Assembly: GCA_965224245.1 (NCBI GenBank)
Contig: OZ245046.1
Location: 1,920,001-1,984,000, forward strand
Origin: Candidatus Eiseniibacteriota bacterium
GTDB taxonomy: Bacteria > Eisenbacteria > RBG-16-71-46 > CAZAMP01
Direction of reading: 5' to 3'
Length of the DNA: 64,000 nucleotides
The position numbers and the translations under genes are program-made. This document shows positions 5,190 to 22,226 of this stretch, piece by piece. The first letter of the stretch is position 1, and each line of letters starts with the position of its first letter. The notes below the pieces were generated by a model that searched no databases, was not told where the DNA came from, and saw nothing but the letters and a program-made list of their open reading frames with translations.

Positions 5190-6848
5190 CTAGTGAAGCC
5201 GGTGGATCGCGTCTCCCCCTTCGTGCGGCGAGCGGCGCGGTGGCGCGGACGGCCGTTCGGTCGCGGTGCTGTCGGTGATCGCGGTCGCGTTGCGGCGCCG
5301 CGCACCCGCGGGCCGACGGAGCCCGTGCTTGCGAACGAGGTTGTGCAGGTGCTGGCGCGAGATGTCCAGCGAGCGGGCGCTCATCGAGATGTTCCACTCG
5401 TGGTCGGTCAGCGTCCGCGCGACCACGAGTCGCTCGAGCTCGTCCATCTGATCGCGGAACGGCCCCTCGGGCAGGGTGAGCGTTCCCGGCGTGTGGCCGC
5501 TCGCGTCCCGAAAGGCATCGGCGGGCAGCTCGGTGTCGTCCCACAGGACGACGGCGCGCTCGACCGCATCCATCAGCTCGCGCACGTGGCCGGGCCAGGT
5601 CCGAGAGGTCAGCACGCGTCGCGCGTCACGCGTCACGGATGCGCGAGGACGTCCCTGGCGCGCGGATGCATCGTGGGCGAAGGCATCCGCCAGGAGCGGG
5701 ACGTCCTCGAGCCGCTCGTCCAGTCCGGGCACGCGGATCGAGGTCGCTCGAAGCATCGACGCAAGGTCGCGTCGGAACCCGCCGGCCCGGACGCCCTCGT
5801 CGAGATCGCGATCCGTCTCGGCCAGGATGCGACACGCGCACTCGCCCGCGCGGGCCAGTGCGTCGACGAGACGATCCTGCGTCGACGGCGGAAGCGCATG
5901 CACGGCGTCCAGGTGAAGCGTGGCTCCGGCGAGCCGACCCTGCAATCGACCTCCGTCCGGCGAGAAGAGCAGCGAGTCGAGCAGCGAGGCGTCACCGGCA
6001 TCGCAACGGACACGGATCAGCCGTCCGTCGGACGTCGCTCCGGTGGCATGGAGCACGCTGACCACGAGCGTCTTGCCGGTGCCCGGCTCACCGGTGACGA
6101 GCACGCGGGCGGCGCTTCCGGCGAGCCGTCCGACCGACCGGCGAAGCGAGACCGCGGCGTGGCTGACCCCGACGATCGCGTCGGTGCCCGCCCGCACGCC
6201 GAGCAGCTGCCGGAGCTGCTGATTCTCGCCGATGGCGACAGCACGCTCGCGCTCCGCGGCGGATCGCGACGCCATCGCCCCGAACGTGCGGGCACACGCG
6301 GTGGTGAAGAACTCGAGCGCCCGGAGCGCTCCCGAGACCGGACGCGGCCGGGGGTCGCGCGCCAGCGCGACCACCGCCAGATCGGCGGCGGGGCGGGCGA
6401 CGACTCGAAAGTAGACCGCGACACCGGCGTCCAGCGGCGAGGGGATCGCCCCCACGCGGCCGGGTCCCGGCTCGAGCCACTCCACGCGTGTCGCATCGGT
6501 GGCTCCGAGCGATCGCATCGCCGTCTCGACGGCCTCGACTTCCGATCCCGTGAAGTCCCCGACCGTCGTTCGCGTGCGCGCGCCCGACGCGCCCTCGGAG
6601 ACGGCCACCGCTCGCTCCAGCTGCGTGAGCCCCAGGCACTCGCGGACCACGGCGGCCGCCAGCTCCGCCGGGCTGATCAGGCTCGACAGACGATCGAGCG
6701 CCCTGGACACGCTCTCCCAGGCGCGAGCCTCGGCCGCCGCCGCGTCGACCAGACGAGTGGTGGCATCTCCCCAGCCGGTCCCGTCGGCCGCCGGCCGTCC
6801 CCCCCGGGCGTCGGTGTCGAGTCCCGACCAGGATCGCGGATCGCTCAT
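5190..6848 (-). CDS. Fis-family sigma54-interaction-type regulator, atypical (no GAFTGA)
   Basis: VLVTGEPGTGKT, GGFRRDL, PGLDERLEDVPLL, WPGHVREL, C-terminal Fis HTH; start uncertain. Confidence 0.8.
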   Translation of the reverse strand: MSDPRSWSGLDTDARGGRPAADGTGWGDATTRLVDAAAAEARAWESVSRALDRLSSLISPAELAAAVVRECLGLTQLERAVAVSEGASGARTRTTVGDFTGSEVEAVETAMRSLGATDATRVEWLEPGPGRVGAIPSPLDAGVAVYFRVVARPAADLAVVALARDPRPRPVSGALRALEFFTTACARTFGAMASRSAAERERAVAIGENQQLRQLLGVRAGTDAIVGVSHAAVSLRRSVGRLAGSAARVLVTGEPGTGKTLVVSVLHATGATSDGRLIRVRCDAGDASLLDSLLFSPDGGRLQGRLAGATLHLDAVHALPPSTQDRLVDALARAGECACRILAETDRDLDEGVRAGGFRRDLASMLRATSIRVPGLDERLEDVPLLADAFAHDASARQGRPRASVTRDARRVLTSRTWPGHVRELMDAVERAVVLWDDTELPADAFRDASGHTPGTLTLPEGPFRDQMDELERLVVARTLTDHEWNISMSARSLDISRQHLHNLVRKHGLRRPAGARRRNATAITDSTATERPSAPPRRSPHEGGDAIHRLH

Positions 6849-7217
6849 CCATGCCTCCGCCGCTCTCGTGCCCGCGTCGTCCCCGGGCGATCCGATGCCC
6901 GAGTCTGTGGATGATCCGCGGGTCGTGCCGGCGCGCACTATAGGCGATGCGGGGTGGGGTCGCCAGGGTTGGATGGACGTCATGTCGTTGTCGTTACGAC
7001 GGGTGCAGGGCTCGGCGGCTCGGCTCGGGCGTTTCCCCCATTCCTTCGGACGATACGAGCCACGAGCGCCGATCACGGGCCGTCGGAGCGCGGCCCGGCC
7101 GGACTCGAGCCGACAATCCAGAGTGCGCCGGCGGCGCTGCACGCAACCGCGTCGTCGCGCCACCGCCAGTTCTCCGGTGGCAGGCGAGGAGCTGACCTCG
7201 ACCGAAAGGACCCAGGC

Positions 7218-7580
7218 ATGTCTCACCGGATCCTCGTCGTCGACGACGAGCCCGCCGTTCGCGACGTCCTGCGGACGATGCTCGAGAAACACGGCTATAC
7301 CGTCACCGAGGCCGGGGACGGCGCCCAGGCGGCACGCGCACTCACCGACGCGTCGTTCGATCTCGTCGTGACCGACATCGTGATGCCCGAGCGAGAAGGG
7401 CTGGAGACGATCCGATTCATCCGGCGAGACTTCCCGCACATCCGGATCATCGCGATCAGCGCTCCCTCGAACAAGGACTACCTCCGGGCGGCCGAGCGCT
7501 TCGGCGCCGAGCGAACGTTCACCAAGCCGTTCAGCCTCTCCGAGCTCGCGACCAGCGTCCGGGACCTCCTGGCGGCCTGA
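7218..7580 (+). CDS. Single-domain response regulator (CheY-like)
   Basis: RILVVDDE, DLVVTDIVMP, KPF; upstream AAGGA. Confidence 0.92.
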   Translation: MSHRILVVDDEPAVRDVLRTMLEKHGYTVTEAGDGAQAARALTDASFDLVVTDIVMPEREGLETIRFIRRDFPHIRIIAISAPSNKDYLRAAERFGAERTFTKPFSLSELATSVRDLLAA

Positions 7581-7599
7581 CGGGCCGTGCCCCCGGAGC

Positions 7600-8466
7600 T
7601 CAGAGCAGCTCGAACGGGACCGGCGTGAAGCACGCCCACAGGACCGCGCCCATCAGGATCGCGAGCACGACCCGGCCGGCGTCCAGGGGCGCCTCGTCCC
7701 GCGTGGGAGGATGCGGCGCTCGCGTGAAGATCGCGACCAGCACCGCCAGGACGAGCCAGTTGTACGCGTGCGTCCCGATCGCCAGCGCGAGCAGCCCGAG
7801 CACCACGAGACGCGACATGACGCGGTGCGCCCGCCCCAGCACGGCGTAGACGATGTGTCCGCCGTCGAGCTGACCCGCCGGAAGCAGGTTCAATGCCGTC
7901 ACGAAGAGCCCCGCCCACGCCGCGAAGGCCATCGGATGTAGCCCCGACATTCCCAGGACGAGGTGCTCCTTTCCCAGCGCCCGCGCGATCTCGTCCAGGA
8001 GCGGCGGGCTTCCCAGGACGATGTCGTCGGCGGGCACGGCACCGAAGCGGGAGCGCGCGAGCCCGTACGTCAGACACGGGACCGCGACCACGAGCCCGGC
8101 CAGAGGACCGGCGATTGCGATGTCGAACAGCGCTCGCCGGGACGGGACCCGGGCCCGCATCCGGATGATCGCGCCCAGGGTGCCGAACGGGGAGATCGGG
8201 AACGGCAAGAAGTACGGGAGCGACGTGGCGACCCCGTAGTGGCGACTCACCGCGTAGTGACCGGCCTCGTGTGCCACGAGGATCGCCATCACCGTGACGC
8301 CGTAGGCCAGGCTCTCGGCGAGCGTCCCGCGGCTGCCGAACGCATACGCGACGACGGTGCTCGCACACGTGGCCACGAACAGCCAGACCGGCCGTCGAGC
8401 GCCATTCCGGCGCTCGTGTCCCGCGATGATCGGCCTCACCGGCGCGAGGTCAGCGCGGAGCGGCAT
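7600..8466 (-). CDS. Site-2 protease (M50) family membrane metalloprotease
   Basis: HEAGH, IAGPLAG, NLLPAGQLDGGH, multiple TM segments. Confidence 0.92.
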   Translation of the reverse strand: MPLRADLAPVRPIIAGHERRNGARRPVWLFVATCASTVVAYAFGSRGTLAESLAYGVTVMAILVAHEAGHYAVSRHYGVATSLPYFLPFPISPFGTLGAIIRMRARVPSRRALFDIAIAGPLAGLVVAVPCLTYGLARSRFGAVPADDIVLGSPPLLDEIARALGKEHLVLGMSGLHPMAFAAWAGLFVTALNLLPAGQLDGGHIVYAVLGRAHRVMSRLVVLGLLALAIGTHAYNWLVLAVLVAIFTRAPHPPTRDEAPLDAGRVVLAILMGAVLWACFTPVPFELL

Positions 8467-8510
8467 GGACGTCGCGGCAGAGAGGGCGGAGAGGGGTCAT
8501 GCGGGCCCGG

Positions 8511-9668
8511 TCACCGGGGGAGTCGAACGAGACGCTCGACGCGTCGGCGATCACCGACGTCGACGACCGTGAAGTACGTGCCCGGTGGCGCGTCACGACC
8601 GTGCTCGTCGAGACCGTCCCACGACATGTGAGCCAGACCGCCCTCGACCGGTCCGTCGAACAGCGACCGGACGCGCCGGCCGGCGACGTCGACGATCGTG
8701 ACCCGCATCGGGCCCTCCGCTCCGGTATGGACGAGGACCGTGGCCCGCGGACGAAACGGATTGGGCATCACCGAGAGCGTGATCCTCTCGGGCCGTGCCG
8801 CGTCCGGGACCGAGACGGTGCCGGCGACCCACTGGCTCACCCAGACGTCGTAGCCCCCGAGCCCGCCCGGCCGGTCGGACGTGAAGTAGAGGGTGAGGCC
8901 GTCCGGGGAAAGCACCGGACTGGCATCGAGATAGCCCGGATGACCGACGCCGCCGGGGACGGGGACCGGATCGCCGAACTCCCCGCCGCCGATCGCGTAG
9001 GCGACCGCGACGTCCCCGTCGACGCACAGGAACATCGAGTCGCCACCGGCCGCGACGAACGGCATGTAAGCGTGCGCGGAGGTGTTGAACGTCAGCGCTA
9101 CCGGCGCCTGCCAGACGCCGCCGACGCGCGTGGCGGTCCAGACGTCGTGACCGCCGGCCCCTCCGGCGCGGTCGAAGGCGGAGAAGACGATGGTATCGGC
9201 TCCGGACGCGCGCCCACCCCACTCGTCGGCCCCGGAGTCGATCGGGGTCCCGAGCGGTGCGTCCGCGATCCAGGAGCCGCCCCCGTCCGGGCTGGCCGTG
9301 CGCAGGTTGAACCCGTGGGTCGTGTACATCAGGACGCCCGACGGCGACAGGTCCGGCGCGTACTCGCGGAGCGGGGTGTTGACCGAGGGCCCGAGGTTCG
9401 TCGGCTCGCTCCAGACACCGTCGGTCCAGTCGGACCGGTAGAGATCGCGATCGCCGTGGCCGCCGGGACGATCGGAGTCGAAGACGAGCACGAGACCGTC
9501 GGCGCTCAACGCGAGGCCGAGCTCGTCGCCCGGGGAGTTGATCGGCGCGCCGAGGTTCACGGCCGGACCCCAGTCGGCGGCCGCCGGCTGAACCGTCGCG
9601 ACCGCGGCGAGGAGCACCGCGAGGGTGGAACGACGAGCTAGATCGGGGTGTGAGCGGGAGATACGCAT
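8511..9668 (-). CDS. Secreted PD40/TolB-like repeat protein with C-terminal FlgD-Ig domain
   Basis: Signal peptide; repeats FDSDRPGGHGDRDLY / FTSDRPGGLGGYDVW; PNPF...VDVAGRRV...WDG.D..G...PGTYF. Confidence 0.85.
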   Translation of the reverse strand: MRISRSHPDLARRSTLAVLLAAVATVQPAAADWGPAVNLGAPINSPGDELGLALSADGLVLVFDSDRPGGHGDRDLYRSDWTDGVWSEPTNLGPSVNTPLREYAPDLSPSGVLMYTTHGFNLRTASPDGGGSWIADAPLGTPIDSGADEWGGRASGADTIVFSAFDRAGGAGGHDVWTATRVGGVWQAPVALTFNTSAHAYMPFVAAGGDSMFLCVDGDVAVAYAIGGGEFGDPVPVPGGVGHPGYLDASPVLSPDGLTLYFTSDRPGGLGGYDVWVSQWVAGTVSVPDAARPERITLSVMPNPFRPRATVLVHTGAEGPMRVTIVDVAGRRVRSLFDGPVEGGLAHMSWDGLDEHGRDAPPGTYFTVVDVGDRRRVERLVRLPR

Positions 9669-9833
9669 CCGGGGGGTTCCTCGGGTGTGGAGCGCGGCGC
9701 CGAGCCGCAGAATGTCGTGGGCCGCCGGGCTGGTCGGCACCGTCGAGTATAGCACCGCCGGGGGTCCGGCGCGGTGGACGGAGACCCCCTCCGAGGGCGG
9801 GCCGAAACGGGCAAGTGACCATCAGAGCGTTAG

Positions 9834-9862
9834 TTGACGGTTTGAGGGGCCCGTGGTAGACT
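9834..9862 (+). promoter_or_regulatory. Sigma70-type promoter of the qhp-like operon
   Basis: TTGACG (9834-9839), 17-bp spacer, TG-n-TAGACT (9857-9862). Confidence 0.65.
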
Positions 9863-9912
9863 CCGCGGGTTCCATGTCGTGGGTCGACACAATCATCGCC
9901 AGGAGCGGGCCT

Positions 9913-11370
9913 GTGGCCGTCGCCTCGGTGCGTGCGAAGGCACGTGCGCTCAGCGTCAACGACTTTCATCTCTTCACCGAGGACGCTCATTCGCACGTGC
10001 TCGTCGTGCCCACGTCCGCGCTCTTCCGGGTCGACCCCGAGGGCCGGCGCATCCTCTCCGCGCTGGCCGACCAGCGTCGAGCCCCGTTCGATCTGGACGC
10101 CTTCCTCGCCCATCCGTCGGTGGACGTGCCGTCCGCGGATGCCGACGCGCTCGTGGAGTCCCTGATCGCCATGGGCGTCCTGACGCACCCCGAGGCCCGC
10201 GGCTCCGACCCCGGCATCCTGAAGGACGACCTCCTGCGTTTCACGACGCCGCCGGTGGGCTCGGTCACGGCGCTGGTGTCGAAGGACTGCAATCTCAAGT
10301 GCGGCTACTGCTACGCCGACCAGGGCCGCTTCGGCCAGTCCGAGGGCGGCGAGATGGACTTCGAGACCGCCAAACGGTTCATGGACATCCTCATCGCCGA
10401 GTCCGGAAACCTCCCCCAGATCCGATATCAGTTCCTGGGAGGCGAGCCGCTGTTGAACGCGAAGCTGATGCGCCGGATCATCGAGTACGGCCGGTCGGAG
10501 GCCGCGCGCATCGGCAAGCGCATCAGCTTCGGCATGACCACCAACGCGACGTTCCTGACGCCGGAGATCATCGGCTACTTCGTCGAGCACGACGTGACGT
10601 GCACGATCAGCATCGACGGTCCCGAGCACGTCAACGATCTGATCCGGGTCAATCACGCCGACAAGGGGTCGTACCAGCGGATCATGCGCGCGGTGGCGCC
10701 GCTTCTGGCGGTGCAGGAGACGCGCGCGCGGGTCACGGTCACCAAGCACTGCCTCGACATGGAGATGATCGTGGATCACCTCCTCGGCGAGGGGTTCAGC
10801 GAGGTCGGCCTGACCCCGGTCAACTCGACCGATCGGCGCTACGCGCTCGACGACGCCGATCGCGAGCGGCTGCTCGACGAGTTCCGCCGGCTGACACGCC
10901 GCTACGTGCGAGAGGCCCGGGAGGGCCGCCGGTTCGGGTTCGCGAACCTCAACGAGCTCCTCAAGCAGATCCACGAGGGACGGAGCCAGACACACCCGTG
11001 CGGCGCCGGCATCAGCATGTTCGCGACCGATGCGAACGGCACGATCTACCCGTGCCACCGCTTTCCGGGCCGCGAGGAGTACGCGATGGGCCACGTCGAC
11101 AGGGGCGTGGATCGCGAGAAGCAGGCCGCCTGGCTGGCGCAGGTCCACGTCCACAACCGGTCGGCCTGCAAGAGCTGCTGGGCGCGCTACATCTGCTCGG
11201 GAGGCTGCTACTACCTCTCGGCGATCGAATACGGAGACGTGTCGCAGACGTTCACACCGATATGTGATCATCTGCGCCAGTGGTATCAGATGGGTTTGGC
11301 TGCGTACGCCGACATCGTCGAGACCTGCCCGGAGCATCTGTCCCGGATGGGTCTCGCGTTGGAAGCCTGA
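9913..11370 (+). CDS. qhpD: Radical SAM/SPASM peptide maturase, QhpD-like thioether-forming enzyme
   Basis: CNLKCGYC; FLGGEPLLN; SPASM PCGAG...IYPCHRF...CKSCWARYICSGGCY; N-terminal RRE-like region; GTG 9913 follows AGGAG (ATG 9874 is an alternative start). Confidence 0.88.
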   Translation: MAVASVRAKARALSVNDFHLFTEDAHSHVLVVPTSALFRVDPEGRRILSALADQRRAPFDLDAFLAHPSVDVPSADADALVESLIAMGVLTHPEARGSDPGILKDDLLRFTTPPVGSVTALVSKDCNLKCGYCYADQGRFGQSEGGEMDFETAKRFMDILIAESGNLPQIRYQFLGGEPLLNAKLMRRIIEYGRSEAARIGKRISFGMTTNATFLTPEIIGYFVEHDVTCTISIDGPEHVNDLIRVNHADKGSYQRIMRAVAPLLAVQETRARVTVTKHCLDMEMIVDHLLGEGFSEVGLTPVNSTDRRYALDDADRERLLDEFRRLTRRYVREAREGRRFGFANLNELLKQIHEGRSQTHPCGAGISMFATDANGTIYPCHRFPGREEYAMGHVDRGVDREKQAAWLAQVHVHNRSACKSCWARYICSGGCYYLSAIEYGDVSQTFTPICDHLRQWYQMGLAAYADIVETCPEHLSRMGLALEA

Positions 11371-11402
11371 CACCGCGAGCACGCGGGCGCGAAGGGGGAC
11401 GC

Positions 11403-11696
11403 TTGAAGCATTTCAAACCGATCAACAAGAAGAGCCGCGAGGCGGTCGCCGAGGGCGCGCCGGATGCGTTCGGCCACGCATGTGCCGCATGTTGCGCGTC
11501 GTTCGCTCCGGGATGGGAGGTCGGCCCGGCCGGCGACCTCGATCCGTGCCCGTGGCAGAACGACCTGCATCTCTGCTGGGTCACGTGCTTCTGGAACTAC
11601 CAGATTCCCGACGACTCGGCGTACTCGTCCTGGATGGACAGCTGCGGCAGCGTGGCCGTGGACTGGACGACGCTCTGCGTGGTGCCGGACGTCTAG
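11403..11696 (+). CDS. qhpC: QhpC-like (QHNDH gamma subunit-like) precursor peptide, 97 aa
   Basis: TTG start after AGGGGG; MKHFKPINKK leader; C-x-x-SFAPGWEV, DLHLC, CFW..Q..D, DW..L match the QhpC pattern as recalled. Confidence 0.88.
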   Translation: MKHFKPINKKSREAVAEGAPDAFGHACAACCASFAPGWEVGPAGDLDPCPWQNDLHLCWVTCFWNYQIPDDSAYSSWMDSCGSVAVDWTTLCVVPDV

Positions 11697-11825
11697 AGCC
11701 GCGCACCGGCAAAGGACCGCATCTGACGTGAACGACAACCGCAGGCTCGCGATCTTCGCGTTCGGCGCCGAGCGCGCTCCGGGGATGGCGACCACTTTCA
11801 TCGAGCCGACGGGAGGCATGATCGC

Positions 11826-12800
11826 ATGAAGCGAGTCATCCTGAGCGTTGCCGTAGCCGCCCTGGCCGTGACGTCGGCCGACGCGGCACGCGTGTACGTG
11901 ACGAGCAATCAGGTCAAGATCATCGACGACGTCGCCGGCGACGTCGTGGGCACGATCGATCTCGGGAAGTCCTACGTCCGGGACATGGTCTTCTCCGCGG
12001 ACGGGTCCACCGCGTACGTGGCCCACACCCGCGGCGTGGCGGTCGTGGACGTCGCGACGTCGGCCGTGACCGCCAACTGGTCGGACTGGACCGTGAGCGA
12101 CCTCGCGCTGGACGACGCCGGCGGGACGCTGAGCACGCTCGAGCACAAGGCGGGCTCGGGGTACCGCGTCGTCACGTACGACGTGTCGACCGGCGACACC
12201 GTCCGGAGCTACGCCGTCGACAACAAGGCGCTCGACCTGACCGCGCCACCGGCCGGCGGACGCGTGTTCACGACGAACCTGCACCGCGGCGTGGTCACGA
12301 GCTACGACCGGCTGACCGGAGAGGCCGGGTCCACGCTCGACGTCGCGCCCTCGGCCACGCCGGACGAGCTCGGGACGTACATCATCAAGTCGCTGATCTC
12401 CCCCGACGGCGGCACGATCTACGTCGTGCTCAACGGCGAGCGGGCCGGCATCACGACGATCTCGGCGACCACCGGCGAGACGACCGGTCAGATCCTCCTC
12501 GGGCACCCCGCGTACGTTCGCGACGCCGTCCTGTCCCCCGACGGCACGCGCATGTACATCTCGGCGCTCGACCACCTGTCGGTGGTGGATCTCGGGACGG
12601 GCACCGAGCTGGCGTGGGTCGACCTCGAGGTCACGCACCAGGGCATCGCGGTGTCGCCCGACGGCTCCCGCGTGTACCTCGTGAACCCGGTCTACGACAC
12701 CAGCGGCAGCCTGGCCGTCGTCGACGCGCGGACGTTCGAGCTGGTGAAGCGCATCTCGGTGCCCGACATCAGCCCGTATCGCGTCGCGATCGTTCCGTAA
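11826..12800 (+). CDS. Secreted YVTN-type beta-propeller, QhpB-like by position
   Basis: GGAGG SD, signal peptide ending ADA, repeated SPDG..YV blades. Confidence 0.8.
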   Translation: MKRVILSVAVAALAVTSADAARVYVTSNQVKIIDDVAGDVVGTIDLGKSYVRDMVFSADGSTAYVAHTRGVAVVDVATSAVTANWSDWTVSDLALDDAGGTLSTLEHKAGSGYRVVTYDVSTGDTVRSYAVDNKALDLTAPPAGGRVFTTNLHRGVVTSYDRLTGEAGSTLDVAPSATPDELGTYIIKSLISPDGGTIYVVLNGERAGITTISATTGETTGQILLGHPAYVRDAVLSPDGTRMYISALDHLSVVDLGTGTELAWVDLEVTHQGIAVSPDGSRVYLVNPVYDTSGSLAVVDARTFELVKRISVPDISPYRVAIVP

Positions 12801-12841
12801 CGAGGAGCGGCGCGGCGACGCGCGCGCTCGAGGCCATCGTC

Positions 12842-13852
12842 ATGGTCGTTGTCGTCAGCATCCTGGCCGCCCTCATCGCCGTCTGGCCGGCGAGGGCGGT
12901 CGATTTCTTTGCCGCGGGCGACGCGCTGTACGGCGTGGATCCCGTCGGCGCGTCCATCCTGTGTCGGTCCGAGCCGCTCCCGGCCACGGCCAGCGACGTC
13001 GAGGTCGACCCCCACGGGCGCTACGTGGCCGTGACCACCGCCGCGGGGCTCACACTCCACGACCTCGAGTGCGCGCCGATCGGCGTCCTCGAGCTGGGCG
13101 TTCTGGACTGCGTCGAGCTGTCCCCGGACGGCGAGACGATCTACGTCCTCGTGCACCCGGCCGCCCGCCGGCGCGACGTCGGCGGACAGCACCGGCTCCT
13201 GGCCATCCCCTTCGCCGAGCCGCGCGAGCCGGTGGAGGTGTGCCGGGTGGGCGCACTCAGCTACGACATGTTTCTCTCGACCGACGGGTCCACCCTCGTG
13301 ATCACGAACAACATCGGACGGGACGTGGACGTGGTCGACGTGGCCTCGGGCAGCGTACGAACCCTTACCATCGCCGCCGGGGCCGAGCCCGAGAACGAGC
13401 TGGCCGTTCTCAGGGCGGGGCTCTGGGATGGTGCACGCTTCCGCCTGGGCGAGAGCGCGCGCACGCGAAAGCTGATTCTCTGGGACATCGACGTCGCCTC
13501 GGGAACGATGACGAAGGCCGAGCAGCCCTGGCGGATGCATGCCCTCGGGCTGGAGCGGGTAGGTGACGTGCTGGTCGTGAACGGTCTGGACCGGATCGCC
13601 TGGGGCCCGTGGTCCTCGTCCGGACTCGACGAAGAGCGCGACGTGCTCCGGGACGTCACCGGCATCGCCGCGTTCTCGAGGGACGGGTCGTCTCCCGAGG
13701 CATACCTGATCGCGCCCGCCGCGGACGGCTCACACCTCATGCGGCTCCGCGGCGGCACCGTGGAGGAGGTGCTGACGCTCCCCGGCAAGGTCACCACACT
13801 GGTGAGCGCCCCGGGCGCGACGTCCCCCGCCGCGACGCCGGTCGAGCCGTGA
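12842..13852 (+). CDS. Second secreted beta-propeller protein
   Basis: Signal-like N-terminus ending PARA; DPHGRYVAV, SPDGETIYV, STDGSTLVI blades. Confidence 0.7.
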   Translation: MVVVVSILAALIAVWPARAVDFFAAGDALYGVDPVGASILCRSEPLPATASDVEVDPHGRYVAVTTAAGLTLHDLECAPIGVLELGVLDCVELSPDGETIYVLVHPAARRRDVGGQHRLLAIPFAEPREPVEVCRVGALSYDMFLSTDGSTLVITNNIGRDVDVVDVASGSVRTLTIAAGAEPENELAVLRAGLWDGARFRLGESARTRKLILWDIDVASGTMTKAEQPWRMHALGLERVGDVLVVNGLDRIAWGPWSSSGLDEERDVLRDVTGIAAFSRDGSSPEAYLIAPAADGSHLMRLRGGTVEEVLTLPGKVTTLVSAPGATSPAATPVEP

Positions 13853-15606
13853 CCCCGCCTCCTCCGACGCGAGGGGAGCTCCGCTGGCTGTTCGATCGCG
13901 TCCGGCGCTACCGCGGTCGGCTCGCGATCCTGATCGGCCTGTTCGCCGTCGGCGCGGCCCTCGGGCTCGTGTACCCCCTGGTGCTCCGGTTCCTGATCGA
14001 TCGCGTGTTCACCGACCGGGACGGCCGCCACCTCCTGCCCGCGCTGGGCGTGCTCCTGCTGCTGTCGCTGGTGCAGGTCGTGGTGACCCAGGTCAGCACC
14101 TACCGGTACACGCAGCTGGCCGGCCGCGTCGTCCTGGATCTCCGGATGCTGCTCTTCCGGCACCTCGAACGTGTTCCGCTCGAGTTCCATGCCGAGCGCC
14201 GCGCGGGTGACATCGCCTCGCGCATCGGGGGCGACATCGCCGAGGTGCAGCAGGCCGCCACCGGCTCGGTGATGGCGCTCGTGACGTCGGTCCTGACGCT
14301 CCTGGCCACCGTGGGCGTGCTCGTGTATCTCGACCCGGTGCTGTTTGCGCTGTCGCTAGCGCTCGTCCCGTTCTCGTGGCTGATCGCCCGACGGTTCGCC
14401 GATCCCGTCCAGGACGCGTCCCGAGAGATCCGCGAGGCGAGCGCCGATCTGGGCTCGACGCTCCTCGACTCGATCGTCGGCCAGCACTTCATCCGGGCGC
14501 ACGGGCTCGAGACCGGCGCCGCCCGGCGGTTCTTCGGAGACGGACGCGAGATCTTCCGCTCTGTCCTCCGCGTCACGCGGCTGAACTGCTGGTCGAGCGG
14601 CCTGAGCAGCGTGCTCTCGACGGTCACCACGCTCTTCGTGCTCGGCATCGGCGGCTGGCGCGTCATCCGGGGCGACATCACGCTGGGGACGCTCCTGGCG
14701 TTCCAGATGTACGTCACCGGACTACACGGACCGATCCGGGGGTTCGTGTCGCTGTACCTCCGTCTCCAGCGCTCGGCCGTCTCCATCCGTCGCATCCGCG
14801 AGATCCTGGAGGTCCCGAGGCTCTCGCGGGGCGGATCGCGCGACGCCGACGACATCGCCGGCCACGTCACGTTCGAGCACGTCTCGTTCGCGTACGAGCC
14901 GGGAGCCGACGTGCTCACCGACGTCTCGTTCACCGTCGCGCCCGGCGAGCGCCTGGCCGTGGTCGGGCCGTCGGGCATCGGCAAGTCCACGCTCCTGGAT
15001 CTCGCGATCGGACTGCGCGTGCCCACCGCGGGACGCGTCCTCCTGGACGGCGTGCCGGTCGACGACTACCGACCCGACGCGCTTCGACGCCGGGTCGGCG
15101 TGGTCTCGCAGGACGTCTTCATGTTTCACGCCTCGATCGGCGAGAACCTCCGCCTGGTGGACCGCACGCTGACCGACGACGCGATCTGGGACGCGCTCGC
15201 GGCGGTCGAGCTGGCCGACTGGGTGCGAACGCTGCCCGAGAGTCTCGACACGTCGGTGGGCGAGCGGGCGCTCCGGCTCTCCGGTGGCCAGCGGCAACGG
15301 CTGGCGATGGCGCGCGCGCTCCTGCGTCGCCCCCGGGTGTTGATTCTCGACGAGGCCACGAGCGCGCTCGACGAGGTGACCGACGCGCTGATCCAGCGCG
15401 CGCTGGAGCCCGCCCTGGCGTCGGCGGCCACGATCGTGGCCAGCCACCGGAGATCGGTCATCGAGGCGGCCGATCGGGCGATCCTCCTCCACCAGGGACG
15501 CATCCACGCCACCGGCTCCCCGACCGACGTCCTGGCCCGGCTGGCACCGCGCGGCGGGCCGCCCCACGCCCCGTCGGCGCCGACGCGGACCCCGCTCACG
15601 CCATGA
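13849..15606 (+). CDS. ABC exporter (fused TMD + NBD), QhpF-like by position
   Basis: TM region, GPSGIGKST, LSGGQRQR, ILDEATSALD; GTG start overlaps upstream stop. Confidence 0.9.
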   Translation: MTPPPPTRGELRWLFDRVRRYRGRLAILIGLFAVGAALGLVYPLVLRFLIDRVFTDRDGRHLLPALGVLLLLSLVQVVVTQVSTYRYTQLAGRVVLDLRMLLFRHLERVPLEFHAERRAGDIASRIGGDIAEVQQAATGSVMALVTSVLTLLATVGVLVYLDPVLFALSLALVPFSWLIARRFADPVQDASREIREASADLGSTLLDSIVGQHFIRAHGLETGAARRFFGDGREIFRSVLRVTRLNCWSSGLSSVLSTVTTLFVLGIGGWRVIRGDITLGTLLAFQMYVTGLHGPIRGFVSLYLRLQRSAVSIRRIREILEVPRLSRGGSRDADDIAGHVTFEHVSFAYEPGADVLTDVSFTVAPGERLAVVGPSGIGKSTLLDLAIGLRVPTAGRVLLDGVPVDDYRPDALRRRVGVVSQDVFMFHASIGENLRLVDRTLTDDAIWDALAAVELADWVRTLPESLDTSVGERALRLSGGQRQRLAMARALLRRPRVLILDEATSALDEVTDALIQRALEPALASAATIVASHRRSVIEAADRAILLHQGRIHATGSPTDVLARLAPRGGPPHAPSAPTRTPLTP

Positions 15607-16331
15607 TCGACCTTCGTGCCTCGCGCGGCTCTGGCATCCGCGTCGCCATCGTCGATTCCGGCGTCGTGGATCGGCACCCACACGTGGGCCCGGTCGCCGC
15701 GGGGTTCGGCGTCGACCCGACGCCCGACGGCCCGCGTCTCAGCGAGCGCTTCGACGACGTGGCCGGGCACGGTACCGCGTGTGCGGGAGTCGTGCGCTGG
15801 GGCGCCCCCGACGCCGCGATCGTAGCCGCGCGCGTGCTCGACGCACGCCTGACCGCGCGCGCCGACGCGCTGGAGCTCGCGCTCGACGCGCTCGTGGCGA
15901 GGCGGGTCGCCATCGTCAATCTCTCGCTGGGTGTCCCCGACCAGGAGGCGCGGGCGCGCCTGGCCCCCGTCACCGATCGCCTGACCGACGCCGGCGTGCT
16001 GATCGTCTCGGCGGTGCGTCCCGACGGTCGGCCGAGCTGGCCGTCCGACGACGCGCGAGCGTTCGACGTTGCCGCCGACCCCTCCCTCTCCCGCTGGCAG
16101 TATCGGGCCGGTGGACCCGGCGAGGCCACGTTCGTCGCCGCACCCACTCCTCGCCCCATTCCCGGCCGGCCGGAGACGGGCAACTACTCGGGCACGAGCT
16201 TCGCCGCGCCCCGGATCGCCGCGCTGCTCGCACGCGCGCTGGCGATCGACCCCACGTTGACGCGTGATACGCTGATCGACGTCCTGATCGCCAACGCACC
16301 GCACTTCGATCACACGAGGGCCTCGTCATGA
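15603..16331 (+). CDS. Short cytoplasmic subtilisin-like S8 protease, QhpE-like leader peptidase
   Basis: VAIVDSG, GHGTACAG, NLSLG, SGTSFAAP triad; 242 aa, no signal peptide; ATGA coupling. Confidence 0.88.
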   Translation: MIDLRASRGSGIRVAIVDSGVVDRHPHVGPVAAGFGVDPTPDGPRLSERFDDVAGHGTACAGVVRWGAPDAAIVAARVLDARLTARADALELALDALVARRVAIVNLSLGVPDQEARARLAPVTDRLTDAGVLIVSAVRPDGRPSWPSDDARAFDVAADPSLSRWQYRAGGPGEATFVAAPTPRPIPGRPETGNYSGTSFAAPRIAALLARALAIDPTLTRDTLIDVLIANAPHFDHTRASS

Positions 16332-17917
16332 CGTCGCGAGACGGCCGCGCGCGCAGGCTGCGCATCGGCTTCTTCCAGTACGAGCTCTCGCACCCGAACA
16401 ACGCCCCCCACGTGGGCATGTGCCTGCTCCTGGCCGACCTGCGTCGCGCGGGACACGAGGTCGACGCCGCCCTAGTGCACGCGCAGGCCGTCGACCTCTT
16501 GATCGATGCCATCCGCGATCGCGCGTACGACTTCGTCGCGTTCGACGCGATCTTCACCGTGCCGGTCCTCGACCGGGTGAAGGCCGCGTGCCCGGACGTC
16601 CCCATCCTGGTCGGCGGGAACAATGCGCTGGCGCTGATGCTGCTCTCGCGCGCGGACTTCGCGATCGTCGGCCCCGCGCGTTCGGCGATGCTCCGGTTCG
16701 TCGAGGGCGTCGCGTCGGAGACCCTCCCGGCCGGCGTACCGAACCTGTTCGTCCGCCTTCCGGACGGCCGCGTGGACCACTCCGGCGTTCACGCCGACTG
16801 GGCCGTGCACGGGGAGCTGGCCGACTACGCGCCCGATCTGGACTGGGGGTATCTGGGTCCGTCCCGCGCGCCCGGATCCAACACCCGCTTCGCGAGCGTC
16901 GTCCCCGAGTGGGGCTGCGCGTTCCAGAACGACTCGCTGACGGGACCGGCGTTCGATGCGCTGGAGCGGGGCGGCGTCAGCGACGTCGTGTCGTCTCTAC
17001 CCCTGACCGACGCGGCGCGGCGGGCCGTGCAGCCCTACGCCTCCAACACGCGCGGATGCTCGTTCTGCGCGTTTCGGTACCAGCCGTACACGATCGATCG
17101 GGTCACGACCACCATCTCGCGCGTGATCGATCAGATGACGTTTCTGTCCACGCGATACGGCGTGACCGAGTTCTCCATCCAGAGCGAGAACCCGTTTCGC
17201 TTCCTCGAGCCGCTGATCACGGCGCTCTCGGAATCCACGCTCAGGGTGGACAAGCTCCTGATCCGCACGTTCCCGGCCATCCTCGCCCGCAACGCGGACG
17301 TGGTCCGCCAGGCCCTCTCGCATGCGCTCGACCGGGGCATCCGAGTTCGCCTGCAGCAGCTCGGGTTCGAGAACTTCTCGCAGCCCGAGCTGGATCGGCT
17401 GGGCAAGGGCATCTCGGTGGAAGAGAACGTGGCCGCCGCCCGTCTCCTGACCGAGCTGTCGGACGCACTCGGCGACGGCGTCGAGCTGTTCGGCGGCCAC
17501 GGGTTCATCCTGTTCACGCCGTGGACGCGTCCCTCGGACATCGTGCAGAACGTCCGCACCGTGGCGAACGACGCCCCGTTTCTCGCCGACTCCTTGACGC
17601 CCGCGTCACGGCTCTGCTTCTACGATCCCTTCAACCCGATCTTTCGGCTGGCCGAGCGCGAGGGCCTGGTCGTGCGCGTCCCGCACGACTACACCCTCGA
17701 CTTCCGGTACGCCGATCCCGACACCCGCCGGATGCTGAAGCTGGCCGCGGCGCTCGAGGGACACCTGGTCCGGCACGGAGCCGAGGCCGGCTCGTGGCTG
17801 TCGACCACGGTGCTCCGCGAGACCGCATCGCTGTTCGCGGGGTCGGACACAACCCCCCGAGATCCGGAAGCGCTCTTCCGGACGGCCGAGGCCCGCGTCA
17901 GGAGCGCCATCGCCTAG
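16328..17917 (+). CDS. Cobalamin-binding-domain radical SAM protein with split CX46CX2C motif
   Basis: N-terminal G..LLA.LRRAGHEV...ILVGG...DFAIVG; WGC...GCSFC; LGFENFS..ELDRLGKG; GFILFTPWT. Confidence 0.8.
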   Translation: MTSRDGRARRLRIGFFQYELSHPNNAPHVGMCLLLADLRRAGHEVDAALVHAQAVDLLIDAIRDRAYDFVAFDAIFTVPVLDRVKAACPDVPILVGGNNALALMLLSRADFAIVGPARSAMLRFVEGVASETLPAGVPNLFVRLPDGRVDHSGVHADWAVHGELADYAPDLDWGYLGPSRAPGSNTRFASVVPEWGCAFQNDSLTGPAFDALERGGVSDVVSSLPLTDAARRAVQPYASNTRGCSFCAFRYQPYTIDRVTTTISRVIDQMTFLSTRYGVTEFSIQSENPFRFLEPLITALSESTLRVDKLLIRTFPAILARNADVVRQALSHALDRGIRVRLQQLGFENFSQPELDRLGKGISVEENVAAARLLTELSDALGDGVELFGGHGFILFTPWTRPSDIVQNVRTVANDAPFLADSLTPASRLCFYDPFNPIFRLAEREGLVVRVPHDYTLDFRYADPDTRRMLKLAAALEGHLVRHGAEAGSWLSTTVLRETASLFAGSDTTPRDPEALFRTAEARVRSAIA

Positions 17918-17993
17918 CACCCGTGTGGATCGCACACGCCTGACCGAGCACTCGCACGACGCTACCGATCATGACGACGCCGCACGTGGACCG

Positions 17994-19898
17994 CTAGCGT
18001 GATCCCCATCGGTCGGCGTCCAGACCGTTCTCGGCACGTCGGAGTCGCACGAGCTCGCCCTCCATCGCGTCGAGCGGGGGCCAGGGGCTCAGGAGATAGC
18101 CGTGCGGCCGCCCGCGCGCGAGGAACCGCTCCGCCAGACGAACGGCCGGCGCGGACCGCGGTCCCTCGGTGAGCCGCACGAGGTTGTAGGCCGCGATCGG
18201 AAACCCGGGGTCGGCGGCCATCGCCTCGCGGAAGTGCCGCTCGGCGGCGTCCCGATCGCCGCGAAACACCGCGATGGTGCCCAGCCCGCACGACACCTCT
18301 GCCCCGGGGGCCCCGACGCGTCCGGCGGCGCGAAACCCGTCGGCCGCCTCGTCGAGCTCGCCGCGCTCGAGGCGCGTGATCGCATGGAAGTGCCGGAGTC
18401 GCGCGTCCTCGGGGCGCCGGGACAGCCCGGCGGCGACGTCGGCCAGGGCCGCGTCGACGAGGCCGACCCGGAGGAGGTGACCCGCCCGCTCGAGGTAGGC
18501 CAGCGCCGTCGCTTCGCCGCGCTCGGCGTCCGAGGTGTAGGCGGTGAGCCCCGGGAACATGCGCTCGATCGGCCAGCGCTCGACCGCGCGAGAGAGCGTG
18601 CGCCGCGCGGACGTCCGCATCAGTGCGATCCGCTCCGGGGTCAGCGCGTTGCCGGGATGACGCCGCACCTCGGTGAGGGCGAGATCGAGCACGGTCACCG
18701 GGCCGCGCGCGGCCAGCTCCATCCACATGCCGTAGTCCTGGGCCCGCGTCAGGGACTCGTCGTACGGGGCATCGCCCAGCGCCCGGAGGTGCTCGGTGCG
18801 CACCATGACCGTGGGCCCCAGGAAATGCGAGCCCCCCAGGAGCAGCCGTAGCGTCTGACCGGGATCGAAGTTCACGACCGGTCGCCACTCGAGGAGATCC
18901 CCGGTGGGCCCGATCGCGTAGTGGTGCGTCGCGCCGAAGACGGCGTCCGGATGTGCGGCCATGTGCGCCGCTTGCAGCTCGAGCTTGCGCGGCAGAAAGC
19001 GATCGTCGTCGTCGAGCCAGGCCACGAGCTCGGTCTTCACGTGCCGCAGCGCCTCGTTCATCGCCCCGGCCTGTCCGCGACGCTCGATCTCGATCAGCGT
19101 GATCGCCTCGCCGAACGGGTGCGCGATCTCGCGCGTGACGGGTGCGCTCCCGTCGGACACCACGATCACGGCGGCCGCCCGTGCGGTCTGCCCGAGCGCG
19201 CTCCGGATGGACTGGGCCAGCCACGGCGAGCGTCCGAGCGTCGGGATCACGACGGTGACCGGAACCCGATCGGCGTCCACGTCGACGTGTACGACGCCAC
19301 TCGCGGTCGCCGCATCCGCACGCCCCACGTCCGCGTGGCCCGCGCCGTCGACGTCGGTGCCGGCGTCCGGCTCGTCCGCCGCGGACGCCTCCACCCGCAC
19401 GAGGTAGCGCCCCACCTCCCCGATCGGCACCGGATACGCGAGACGGGCCAGCGGCGTGTAGTCCACGAGGACCGGCGTCGGCGATGGATGTCGTCCCGGG
19501 ATCACGTGATCGATCCGGCGCTCGCCGCGCCCGACGACGAGCACGACGCCGCCGGGAACCACGTGCTCGAGCACGTCGGCGGCGCGGAGATCCCCCCACG
19601 CCCCGTCCGCATCGAGAACGATCGTGTCCCAGACGCCGTCCAGCGTGCGATCGGCGCCGTGTGTGACGTAGTCGGCCACCCCCAGCTCCGCGGCACGACG
19701 CAGCAGATGCAGGCGGAGGACGGGATCGGCCACGCCGTGCATCACGCTCGGTACGCGCTCCCAGAGCGCCTCCGGGATGCCGTCGCACGGGACGCCGAGC
19801 ACGAGCGTGTCGCCGGACGCCAGGGCCGCGATGCGCGCGGCGAGCCGGCGCTGGCGCGGGACCGCTCCCTCGTGAAAGCCGCCGGGCCCGCTCAGCAT
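17994..19898 (-). CDS. Glycosyltransferase family 2 with C-terminal TPR repeats
   Basis: VTVVIPT, VVSDGS, AWLDDDD, QDY.MW; TPR-like helices; extra N-terminal domain. Confidence 0.85.
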   Translation of the reverse strand: MLSGPGGFHEGAVPRQRRLAARIAALASGDTLVLGVPCDGIPEALWERVPSVMHGVADPVLRLHLLRRAAELGVADYVTHGADRTLDGVWDTIVLDADGAWGDLRAADVLEHVVPGGVVLVVGRGERRIDHVIPGRHPSPTPVLVDYTPLARLAYPVPIGEVGRYLVRVEASAADEPDAGTDVDGAGHADVGRADAATASGVVHVDVDADRVPVTVVIPTLGRSPWLAQSIRSALGQTARAAAVIVVSDGSAPVTREIAHPFGEAITLIEIERRGQAGAMNEALRHVKTELVAWLDDDDRFLPRKLELQAAHMAAHPDAVFGATHHYAIGPTGDLLEWRPVVNFDPGQTLRLLLGGSHFLGPTVMVRTEHLRALGDAPYDESLTRAQDYGMWMELAARGPVTVLDLALTEVRRHPGNALTPERIALMRTSARRTLSRAVERWPIERMFPGLTAYTSDAERGEATALAYLERAGHLLRVGLVDAALADVAAGLSRRPEDARLRHFHAITRLERGELDEAADGFRAAGRVGAPGAEVSCGLGTIAVFRGDRDAAERHFREAMAADPGFPIAAYNLVRLTEGPRSAPAVRLAERFLARGRPHGYLLSPWPPLDAMEGELVRLRRAENGLDADRWGSR

Positions 19899-19917
19899 CG
19901 GAGCCGCTCCGGCCGGC

Positions 19918-21507
19918 TCACGACGCGGGGCTCCAGAAACGCGCGGGTCGGATCGGTCCTCCGAAGCGCGGACTCTCCAGCAACTCGGCGTAGCGCTCGA
20001 CCATGCGCTCGCTCTCGCCCGGCACGCGGAGCCCGGGCAGATGCTCCATCGTCCGGAACAGCTCGGGCGTCACGCGATAGGCGAGGCGCTCGCGCTGGCG
20101 GAGCCGGAGCTTCAGCGTGGCCTCGACGCGTGCGTCGGCGGGAAGCGCATCGCTCTCGACACTGATCGCACCGGCGTCGATGGGCGCGTGCCAGCCCAGG
20201 GACAGCGCCTCGAAGTCACGCGGCGCCTCCATCCGGAGCCGGACGCCGTACGCCCCCGGATCGCGGAAGATCGCGGTCTCCGGAAACGCGACCACCGGGA
20301 GCACGTTCGTCATGACGCCTCGCTCGTTCAGCGCGGCGATCATCGCATCGGAGGCCGCGATCGTGTCGGGCGTCTCGCCGGGGAGTCCCACCATCAACGA
20401 CGACTGCAGGTGCGTCAGGCCGCGGGCCGCGAGCCGGTCGAATGCGGCCAGCAGCGCGTCGTCGGTGATGTCACGTCCCGCGCGGCGGCGCACGCGCTCG
20501 GCACCCGCCTCCACGCCGAGCCACACACGAAGGCGAGGGGTGCGGGCCGAGATGCGCGCCAGGGCATCCGCGGCGCGGTCGGTGATCATGCCCGGGTGAA
20601 CGTCCACGAGGACGGCGGCCGCGTCACCGTGGGCCTCGAGCGCGGCGGCCAGCGCCTCCAGCGGCCTGGGGCCGGAGAAGTGCTCGGGCAGGTACAGCGG
20701 CACCTTGCGGGCCAGCATGTCCGGTATCTGCTCGTCCAGCTGACGGGCGAGGGACTTCTGAAGCGCGGGAAACAGCCGCTCGGAGTTCAGTGAGCAAAAC
20801 GTGCACGGCTTGGGGCAGCGCCCGCGCATGAACGGCAGGCCGATGTAGCGACCTCGCCCGCGCGGCCACACGAGATCGGGGTCGAACGAGAGCGTGACCA
20901 CCTCGTCCGGCGGCGTGGGCGCCGCCGGGGTACCGTCGCCGACGAGCACACCGTCCCGATCGCGGCGCACGACCCCCGGAACCGACGAGACCCGATCGGC
21001 ATCCAGGCCGGCCAGGAGCGCCGGATACGCCGCGTCACCGTCGCCGATCACGATCGAGTCCACGGCCGGCACCGAGCGCAAAATGGGCTCGGCGAGGGCT
21101 CCGGCGTGAACGCCGCCGAGCGTGACGTGCACCGACGGATCGAGCTCCTTGATCCAGCCGGCCACCGCGAACGCACCGGCGCTGTGGTACGACCAGTGGC
21201 ACTGGATCCCGACCGCCCGCGGTGCCATCTCGTCCAGAACCCGTGCGAGAAGATGACGCCAACGATCTTCCCCCCAGCGACTTCGGGCCTCCATTCCCGA
21301 GATGGTGGCCGCCGCGTCGTGCAGCTGGACCAGCACCGGATCGTGCCCGTGACGGCGGCACGCCTCGGCGACGTACAGGAGCCCCATCGGGATGATGTCG
21401 GCCGTTCCGTGCCAGTCGCCCGGACTCTGCATCGGATACGGCGGTGGATGAATGAGGACGGGGTTCTTCACCGGTTCCATCCGAGGGAGGGCGGTCCGAT
21501 CGGCCAC
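19918..21507 (-). CDS. Cobalamin-binding radical SAM protein
   Basis: PMGLLYVA, LGGVHA, GDGD, CPKPCTFC, LGVEAG, MVGLPGET. Confidence 0.88.
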   Translation of the reverse strand: MADRTALPRMEPVKNPVLIHPPPYPMQSPGDWHGTADIIPMGLLYVAEACRRHGHDPVLVQLHDAAATISGMEARSRWGEDRWRHLLARVLDEMAPRAVGIQCHWSYHSAGAFAVAGWIKELDPSVHVTLGGVHAGALAEPILRSVPAVDSIVIGDGDAAYPALLAGLDADRVSSVPGVVRRDRDGVLVGDGTPAAPTPPDEVVTLSFDPDLVWPRGRGRYIGLPFMRGRCPKPCTFCSLNSERLFPALQKSLARQLDEQIPDMLARKVPLYLPEHFSGPRPLEALAAALEAHGDAAAVLVDVHPGMITDRAADALARISARTPRLRVWLGVEAGAERVRRRAGRDITDDALLAAFDRLAARGLTHLQSSLMVGLPGETPDTIAASDAMIAALNERGVMTNVLPVVAFPETAIFRDPGAYGVRLRMEAPRDFEALSLGWHAPIDAGAISVESDALPADARVEATLKLRLRQRERLAYRVTPELFRTMEHLPGLRVPGESERMVERYAELLESPRFGGPIRPARFWSPAS

Positions 21508-21840
21508 CGCGGGTGTGCGGGCGCCGCCGGACTATAGCACACGGCACGCGACGTACGCGGCTCCCCCGACGCCGACAAGTCGTTCTTCGTCAGTATGTTG
21601 GGCGGGACGGCGGCTCCACCGGCCCCATTGACCGGGGCCGAGCGCGGTCGGTATGCTGGGTGCGAACGGGTCGTGGAGGGGCGCAGAACGGTCACCGCCG
21701 CGGCCGGCCCCCGCCGAGCACGCTCCGGCGCCGCTCAGGGGCCGGAACCCACTTGCCGATCCGTACGTCCAACCGGCGGACAGTCACGAACCGCGGCGGG
21801 CGCCGCGAGGCCCCGCTTCTTCGACCAGGAGCACACGTCC

Positions 21841-22173: not shown

Positions 22174-22226
22174 CGCCCCGGCTCGCTCGCGGCGCGACTG
22201 CCGTCGGCGCCGCGATACTCGTCGCG

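Follow-up and report, generated by a model that had tools for sequence, protein, structure and literature searches.

The quinohemoprotein amine dehydrogenase (QHNDH) of Paracoccus denitrificans and Pseudomonas putida (PDB 1jju, 1jmx) is encoded by the qhpADCBEFG(R) cluster. In the sections of the primary reports that we drew on, its small gamma subunit, QhpC, carries one Cys-Glu and two Cys-Asp links (PMC13692751), Trp43 of QhpC is the precursor of the cofactor cysteine tryptophylquinone (CTQ), and the O2-dependent route through the hydroxylase QhpG is the only one described (PMC7876137). A second family of relevance is that of the U32 proteins UbiU and UbiV (YhbU and YhbV of E. coli), which the consulted parts of PMC10990095 present as O2-independent hydroxylases of ubiquinone synthesis with prephenate as oxygen donor; this chemistry is also proposed there for the entire U32 family, to which TrhP and RlhA belong (PMC6747719, PMC10990095). 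Here we describe a seven-gene operon at positions 9853-17917 of a 64,000-nt stretch of Eisenbacteria DNA (the window, to which all coordinates refer unless prefixed C1, G000 or with a locus number of the form Lnnn), taken from a 6.94 Mb genome in 27 contigs that is 97.4% complete. We consider it slightly better than an even chance that this operon encodes a relative of QHNDH that does without the heme subunit and whose tryptophan-derived quinone would be made without O2 by a fusion protein resembling UbiV and UbiU. The prevailing view is that the oxygen atoms of tryptophylquinone cofactors have to come from O2 or H2O2.

The open reading frame (ORF) listing and profile scans place all seven genes on the + strand. 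The first encodes a QhpD-like radical S-adenosylmethionine (SAM)/SPASM thioether maturase (9853-11370, likely starting at ATG 9874; PF04055, TIGR03906, SPASM TIGR04085, motif CNLKCGYC), and the second a QhpC-like precursor peptide of 97 aa (11403-11696; PF08992, NF037958, alignment to 1jju_C and 1jmx_G). These are followed by a QhpB-like YVTN seven-bladed beta-propeller with a signal peptide (propeller 1, 11826-12800; TIGR03907 and a family profile that reaches 1jju_B), a second beta-propeller that hhalign identifies as its paralogue (propeller 2, 12842-13852), a QhpF-like ABC exporter with permease and ATPase and no peptidase domain (13849-15606; PF00664, PF00005), a QhpE-like short subtilisin (S8) leader protease (15603-16331; NF049966, with D/H/S motifs in the translation) and a B12-binding-domain, radical-SAM-like accessory protein with a Cx46CxxC motif (16328-17917; PF02310). 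The last four genes are joined by overlaps of GTGA (13849), ATGA (15603) and ATGA (16328), the first of which, between the propeller 2 stop and the ABC gene, holds only if the GTG start of the ABC gene is chosen. A sigma-70-like promoter candidate (TTGACG-17-TAGACT with TG, 9834-9862, + strand) is the sole match across 9400-18200, where shuffled sequences would give 0.3 ± 0.5. A first-pass annotation of the sequence had proposed a qhp-like operon of seven co-directional genes, the last four coupled, behind one promoter; we recover QhpC-, D-, B-, E- and F-like genes, the D-C-B...F-E order and the overlaps, and the promoter stands as a consensus match. Set against the qhp system as the consulted parts of PMC7876137 describe it, the locus has the same cross-link and CTQ positions, D-, B-, F- and E-like proteins and the same gene order, whereas its genome lacks QhpA and QhpG and adds propeller 2, the B12 gene, four extra Cys residues and an LCVVPD tail on the peptide.

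The QhpD-like enzyme matches TIGR03906 over model positions 2-460 of 467 (387 bits, cut-off 453) and the PapB model less well (301 bits, cut-off 340). QhpE NF049966 is the best model for the S8 protease (128.9 bits, cut-off 165), propeller 1 matches TIGR03907 at E 2.6e-10 (40 bits, cut-off 223), and the ABC exporter gives generic profile matches only. A profile of the propeller 1 family recovers 1jju_B at E 4e-14, with weak matches to the heavy chains of aromatic amine and methylamine dehydrogenases. Propeller 2 taken alone has no family match in profile scans, and its kinship to the propeller 1 family comes from hhalign (99.6%, E 1e-24, 289 columns).

The gene for the precursor peptide begins with TTG at 11403, downstream of the ribosome-binding site GAAGGGGGA, and encodes a leader of ~23 aa followed by a Cys-rich core. 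The agreement with the QHNDH gamma profile on which the first-pass annotation had staked its proposal is there (NF037958, QH_gamma, 50.4 bits, cut-off 50), PF08992 scores 36.9 bits (cut-off 25), and the only convincing PDB matches found by phmmer are QHNDH gamma subunits (1jmx_G, 1.9e-7; 1jju_C, 1.3e-6). Residues C30, E39, C49, D54, C58, C62, W64 and D70 align with Cys7, Glu16, Cys27, Asp33, Cys37, Cys41, Trp43 and Asp49 of 1jju_C. Following the QHNDH literature, we take the pairs to be C30/E39, C49/D54 and C62/D70 for the thioethers and C58/W64 for CTQ. Across 20 homologues C49 is almost invariant, and the other seven positions are fully so. The subfamily is further marked by a CC doublet (C31), by C81 six residues ahead of an invariant D87, and by a C-terminal LC(V/T)(V/I)PD with C92 and D96; the window peptide thus carries four extra Cys (C27, C31, C81 and C92) in addition to its LCVVPD tail, and the extra Cys and Asp residues of the subfamily may form further thioether pairs. 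A profile search across 1.84 billion representatives found only 86 matches at E <=0.001 for the QhpC superfamily as a whole, and eight of these bear the subfamily signature as captured by regular expressions. A QhpC-like N-terminal region, complete with leader and some of the Cys pattern, is fused to a large C-terminal domain of unrelated sequence in P0189 (557 aa) and P0191 (518 aa). The host genome has one QhpC gene.

Hidden Markov model (HMM) searches of the whole host genome found neither QhpA nor QhpG above cut-off and thus gave no sign of a split canonical system, the arrangement that the first-pass annotation had named as fatal to its proposal. The best QhpA match reaches 23 bits against a cut-off of 274 and was rejected, as it is confined to the segment that binds heme in an unrelated cytochrome (C1:2655053) and a Thermus control genome also gives a sub-cut-off match. 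The best QhpG match, at 78.6 bits against 240, was likewise set aside, since all 14 control genomes give sub-cut-off matches too at the default E-value. The host genome also has no homologue of the QhpG-like flavoprotein found in relatives. QhpA was above cut-off in none of the five other genomes carrying the subfamily peptide; its absence from the host and from all five argues that the heme-free state is a family trait and not an assembly gap. The Acidobacteriota clusters encode a protein of 308-374 aa that matches QhpA domain IV only (PF09100 29.5 bits, cut-off 25), which looks like a QhpA remnant, with Gemmatimonadota offering a weaker case; no such remnant was found in the window. Further, CxxCH occurs in none of the 297 window ORFs of at least 70 aa, in agreement with the c-type cytochrome-free window that had been noted before.

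The neighbourhoods of relatives, whose analysis the first-pass annotation had proposed, contain a candidate for the missing hydroxylase. A pattern scan with the peptide alignment yielded 80 loci, 59 of them canonical and 21 belonging to the subfamily (L003-L023, 42-75% identity), the latter from Eisenbacteria, Gemmatimonadota, Myxococcota and other marine metagenome-assembled genomes (MAGs). The order D-C-propeller-...-ABC-S8 recurs across these relatives, and in 14 of the 21 subfamily loci a pair of genes resembling UbiV and UbiU, which we call X and U32, lies between the propeller and ABC genes; the other seven lack the pair, three of them being cut by contig ends. The U32 product matches PF01136 at 1e-31 to 1e-42, is matched by the NCBIfam UbiU and TrhP models, and has seven invariant Cys (CX6CX12C...CX2C...CX5C). 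X, the first gene of the pair, encodes ~320 aa with no Pfam family and, in 14 sequences, keeps one far-upstream Cys followed by C-(about 18)-C-x3-C. These patterns resemble the ligand sets given in the consulted part of PMC6747719, CX6CX16CX38C for UbiU and CXnCX12CX3C for UbiV. Sequence searches of the PDB with X, U32 and B12-protein profiles returned nothing useful. The pair shares with UbiU-UbiV, as portrayed in the sections of PMC6747719 and PMC10990095 that we used, the PF01136 domain, the CX6CX12C-type U32 Cys, a partner pattern resembling that of UbiV and the two-protein architecture, and in both cases the alternative enzyme at the step concerned is a flavin monooxygenase. It differs in that it would presumably act on a Trp of a cross-linked protein instead of on a prenylphenol or RNA, that X has no Pfam family, and that the two halves are fused in the window genome. 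No UbiT-like gene was seen beside X-U32 in the loci examined, though no dedicated search was run.

The window operon itself has no X-U32 pair. The host genome holds exactly one U32 homologue, and this is an in-frame X-U32 fusion of 705 aa (G000:C1:37295-39412, equivalent to L091:7295-9412; PF01136 112.6 bits), at a distance of 1.89 Mb. A quick maximum-likelihood tree built from 75 U32 sequences, with long branches flagged, puts the fusion together with pairs from L003 and from three clusters of Acidobacteriota, all of them qhp-linked (SH-aLRT 89), and this group is nested in a clade of 20 rows (support 91), 15 of which are flagged qhp-linked. Among the four unflagged rows of the clade, L022 is actually qhp-linked, and L140 shares a MAG with the pair-less cluster L021, so that L140/L021 is a second case in which the pair stands apart from its cluster. 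We regard the placement of the fusion among qhp-linked pairs as supportive rather than decisive.

The distribution of the two hydroxylase types within the phylum points the same way. In an even sample of 151 phylum genomes, the peptide occurs in six and X in two, namely the host and the genome of L003; both are peptide carriers, and none of the 145 other genomes has X. The remaining four peptide carriers have a QhpG-like flavoprotein (NF049967 231, 224, 193 and 153 bits), homologous to that of L004, which neither X carrier has by profile and homology search (0/2). One of the genomes, G149, has an operon laid out like that of the window and its QhpG-like gene on a separate contig, which indicates that a hydroxylase outside the operon is normal in this phylum. 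We also scored peptide-anchored loci by tblastn, keeping the 54 of at least 15 kb and dropping 26 shorter ones. QhpG-type genes alone were found in 33 of these, U32 alone in 17, both in none and neither in four. With QhpA present (43 loci) the corresponding counts are 32, 9, 0 and 2, and with QhpA absent (11 loci) they are 1, 8, 0 and 2. The locus of Sedimenticola hydrogenitrophicus (L157) carries a full QhpA/QhpC/QhpG cluster (QhpG 535 bits) plus X-U32, an arrangement that would be expected of a facultative organism.

A reverse scan anchored on X gave 79 loci, 77 of them new (L092-L168). A QhpD-like gene adjoins the pair in 21 of the 77. Full canonical clusters with X-U32 occur in Sedimenticola, a Bacillales MAG and a Syntrophobacteraceae MAG (L122), with QhpA at 336-626 bits and QhpC at 117-163 bits, and four further Desulfobacterota loci have the layout of a canonical cluster with X-U32. 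Where the pair lies away from a qhp cluster, QhpC was found elsewhere in three of five genomes.

Taken together, these observations suggest the following pathway. The QhpD-like radical SAM/SPASM enzyme would cross-link the 97-aa precursor in the cytoplasm through Cys-to-Asp/Glu thioethers, and Trp64 would be dihydroxylated, starting CTQ formation with Cys58, by the UbiV-like/UbiU-like U32 iron-sulfur fusion in place of the O2- and FAD-dependent QhpG. The QhpE-like S8 protease would then remove the leader and the QhpF-like ABC transporter export the peptide, which would dock in the QhpB-like propeller 1 in the periplasm, with propeller 2 as a possible third subunit. Lacking a diheme subunit of its own, the complex would hand its electrons on to a distinct carrier, in the manner of methylamine dehydrogenase. 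The B12 protein would be a clade-specific extra tailoring enzyme, possibly a C-methyltransferase or one acting at the extra Cys27. By analogy, the complex would resemble the methylamine and aromatic amine dehydrogenases, whose cofactor is tryptophan tryptophylquinone (TTQ), in having a seven-bladed propeller, a small quinone subunit, no built-in heme and a separate carrier; it differs from them in that its small subunit is homologous to QhpC and not to the TTQ light chain and would carry radical SAM-made thioethers instead of disulfides, and the operon showed no MauG-type maturation gene. One of the two readings offered at first pass, a heme-free complex of peptide and propellers with a possibly O2-independent route to the modified Trp, is still the best one, with the U32 fusion taking the place of the B12 protein as the better candidate for the hydroxylase.

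If this assignment is correct, the little-understood U32 family would gain its first protein substrate, and QhpG would have a counterpart that works without O2, as UbiIHF has in UbiUV; the alternation of X-U32 with QhpG across dozens of clusters makes the pair a concrete candidate for an oxygen-free tryptophylquinone route. The heme-free branch would further indicate that the catalytic module of QHNDH can function, or be put to another use, in the absence of the cytochrome subunit, and raises the question of which substrate it oxidises and to what it passes electrons in the uncultured phyla of soil and sea. A broader version, to which we give somewhat less than an even chance, is that there is a widespread family of heme-free CTQ quinoproteins, each consisting of a gamma-like peptide with one or two propellers, whose quinone is made without O2 by U32 iron-sulfur hydroxylases acting on a protein side chain, and that the non-canonical B12 radical SAM-like protein of Eisenbacteria and Acidobacteriota adds a new modification tied to the extra Cys. 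What appears to be new here is that a branch without the heme subunit exists, that the putative hydroxylase gene is fused and lies apart from the operon, that X-U32 and QhpG-like genes occur in an either/or manner within one phylum, and that a B12 accessory goes with the extra Cys. Our literature search, which covered main texts (the U32 tables of PMC6747719 might list qhp-linked members), found no paper tying U32 to tryptophylquinone or quinohemoprotein amine dehydrogenase, and the parts of the literature on CTQ, anaerobic formation and radical SAM enzymes that it covered describe no O2-free route. Cultured Sedimenticola strains, with X-U32 in their qhp clusters (and QhpG as well in one of them, L157), make a genetic test possible.

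Several points weigh against the proposed pathway. The argument is drawn from gene content, homology, residue conservation and distribution, from which we infer the chemical steps, the substrate and the complex. Two heme-copper oxidase genes are present in the genome, which means that the organism is no strict anaerobe, and no electron acceptor was identified, none lying near the operon in a window without CxxCH. The QhpD-, QhpE- and QhpB-like proteins all score under the NCBIfam equivalog cut-offs, though the qhp models are their best matches. The kinship of X with U32 is weak (hhalign 68%, E 4.9e-5, 74 columns; a Pfam match in one of nine members; an Atlas lead to PF01136 at 0.78 for an X homologue). 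Support for the grouping of the fusion is under 95, in a quick tree with long branches, and the fusion gene is unlinked to the operon, with neighbours that match no other X-U32 locus. QhpC is missing from the other two of the five genomes with a qhp-unlinked pair and from all five Bacillota, Lentisphaerota and Omnitrophota genomes with X-U32; the presence of the pair in QhpC-free genomes means that it has at least one other substrate. Finally, the QhpG-type query set used for locus scoring included a Novosphingobium protein of 374 aa that reaches only 49.5 bits to NF049967.

Because the cluster contains the full logic of a ribosomally synthesised and post-translationally modified peptide (RiPP), with leader peptide, radical SAM/SPASM enzyme, protease and ABC exporter, we also considered whether the QhpC scaffold has been repurposed, either as an exported cross-linked peptide or as a structural peptide-propeller module of the surface, with no quinone and no redox function. 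Ranthipeptide-type RiPP systems offer a parallel for this, with their leader, PapB/QhpD-type maturase, protease and exporter all having counterparts here; the operon has no heme subunit, hydroxylase or nearby electron acceptor, and the extra Cys and the LCVVPD tail set the subfamily peptide apart. Nonetheless, the CTQ pair Cys58/Trp64 and the Cys/acid pairs are kept across the subfamily. In each relative whose contig extends far enough, the gene after that for the peptide encodes a propeller, and Acidobacteriota have up to three peptide-propeller pairs per cluster; this constant adjacency makes a protein subunit more likely than a free peptide. Moreover, all peptide-bearing genomes of the phylum have either X-U32 or a QhpG-like protein, which would not be expected if no Trp had to be hydroxylated. 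We therefore judge this explanation unlikely.

A further explanation accepts a true CTQ enzyme and assigns the oxidation of Trp to another enzyme, or to an autocatalytic reaction after export, leaving the U32 fusion to hydroxylate RNA, a quinone lipid or a similar substrate. The remoteness of the fusion gene among unrelated neighbours and the occurrence of X-U32 in QhpC-free genomes would fit, as would the fact that the U32 proteins characterised in the consulted part of PMC10990095 act on ubiquinone precursors or RNA. We hold it to be improbable in view of the either/or pattern with QhpG-like proteins in the phylum, the position of the fusion among qhp-linked pairs in the tree, and the restriction of X to two of 151 phylum genomes, both of them peptide carriers.

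The B12 protein bears on the remaining alternative. The first-pass annotation had called it a B12-type radical SAM enzyme and implied that it replaces QhpG. Its B12 domain is borne out (PF02310 33.4 bits, cut-off 32.1), whereas it has no match to Pfam Radical_SAM (PF04055) and no CxxxCxxC; its conserved Cys are C197-x46-C244-x2-C247, common to six family members. Weak model matches of these six are to TIGR03975, a RiPP radical SAM C-methyltransferase, in four and to BchE, the anaerobic oxidative cyclase, in two, BchE being the best NCBIfam match of the window protein (E 2.6e-6). Like BchE and the class B (B12-dependent) radical SAM C-methyltransferases of RiPP pathways, the protein combines an N-terminal B12 domain with a radical SAM-like core, and it differs from them in its Cx46CxxC motif and lack of a Radical_SAM match. 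The family is rare, with 12 loci in the species-level genome collection. All six homologues at 38% identity or above adjoin qhp-like clusters, which together with the window makes four Eisenbacteria and three Acidobacteriota genomes, and the six at 29-30% (Omnitrophota and a Planctomycetales MAG) are not beside qhp clusters. The gene is present in all six peptide-bearing phylum genomes, with X-U32 in two and a QhpG-like protein in four, and it occurs together with X-U32 in three Acidobacteriota clusters. Because it accompanies a QhpG-like flavoprotein or a U32 pair alike, the implied replacement of QhpG falls away, and the B12 protein is, on this comparative evidence, an accessory of this cluster clade and not a substitute hydroxylase. 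That the B12 protein itself oxidises the CTQ Trp in the manner of BchE, with oxygen from water, while the U32 fusion serves another pathway, is very unlikely: translational coupling to the S8 gene, the BchE match and the confinement of close homologues to qhp-like clusters speak for it, but the protein is never the sole candidate hydroxylase, most heme-free clusters (the marine group and Gemmatimonadota) lack its gene yet keep Trp64, and the family fits TIGR03975 more than BchE and misses CxxxCxxC.

The B12 gene is correlated with the extra Cys of the peptide. All peptides from B12-containing clusters read A-C-x-x-C-C, which includes the extra Cys, and those from clusters without the gene read (F/V)-x-x-C-C. 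B12-containing clusters mostly also have a second propeller, which was found only in the window, L003 and the Acidobacteriota loci L111, L114 and L121. As these clusters form one clade, the correlation may reflect one evolutionary event. The gene has no fixed position: the window, L003 and G149 carry it behind the S8 gene, L004 and L170 have it upstream on the far side of a glycosyltransferase gene, and in Acidobacteriota it stands upstream in divergent orientation.

Downstream of the operon, a convergent gene for a GT2 + TPR glycosyltransferase (17994-19898, - strand, by profile scan) adjoins the B12 gene in the five phylum genomes whose adjoining DNA was read, and not in Acidobacteriota. It opens a convergent set (17994-24139, - strand) that continues with a canonical B12 radical SAM gene with CxxxCxxC (19918-21507), a DegT aminotransferase and an NTP transferase, and that probably forms a glycan cluster in its own right; on the + strand, 21595-22173 encodes a HesB/IscA-like Fe-S assembly protein. 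The pairing of a non-canonical with a canonical B12 protein is echoed in Omnitrophota, where the distant B12 homologues of L174, L177 and L180 adjoin a canonical B12 radical SAM gene, joined by an ABC-F ATPase gene in L174 and L180. Upstream, and divergent from the operon, are genes for a PD40-repeat protein with a FlgD-Ig/T9SS-type C-terminal domain (8511-9755, - strand) and an M50 peptidase (7600-8466, - strand); both are syntenic in L003 and G149, which shows that the whole neighbourhood is conserved in the phylum.

Other arrangements were seen among the loci examined. The X-U32 loci of Bacillota, Omnitrophota and Lentisphaerota genomes without QhpC include L094, L104, L106, L115, L148 and similar ones, and in the Omnitrophota/Lentisphaerota group the gene order is reversed, with U32 before X. 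An NrfH-like multiheme cytochrome of 185-192 aa is encoded inside canonical Desulfobacterota qhp clusters with X-U32 (L122:5080-5637, L133, L145 and L152) and is a possible membrane electron outlet. The genome of L004 contains a second QhpD-like/propeller/ABC/S8 cluster (L183, G087:C1:3511001-3531000, at 5351-10376) 860 kb from its QhpC gene, in which tblastn found no peptide. In the acidobacterial locus L172, three peptide-propeller pairs (5596-7003, 14747-16109 and 19850-21215) accompany one set of maturation genes, and a single maturation machinery may there serve several gamma/beta modules.

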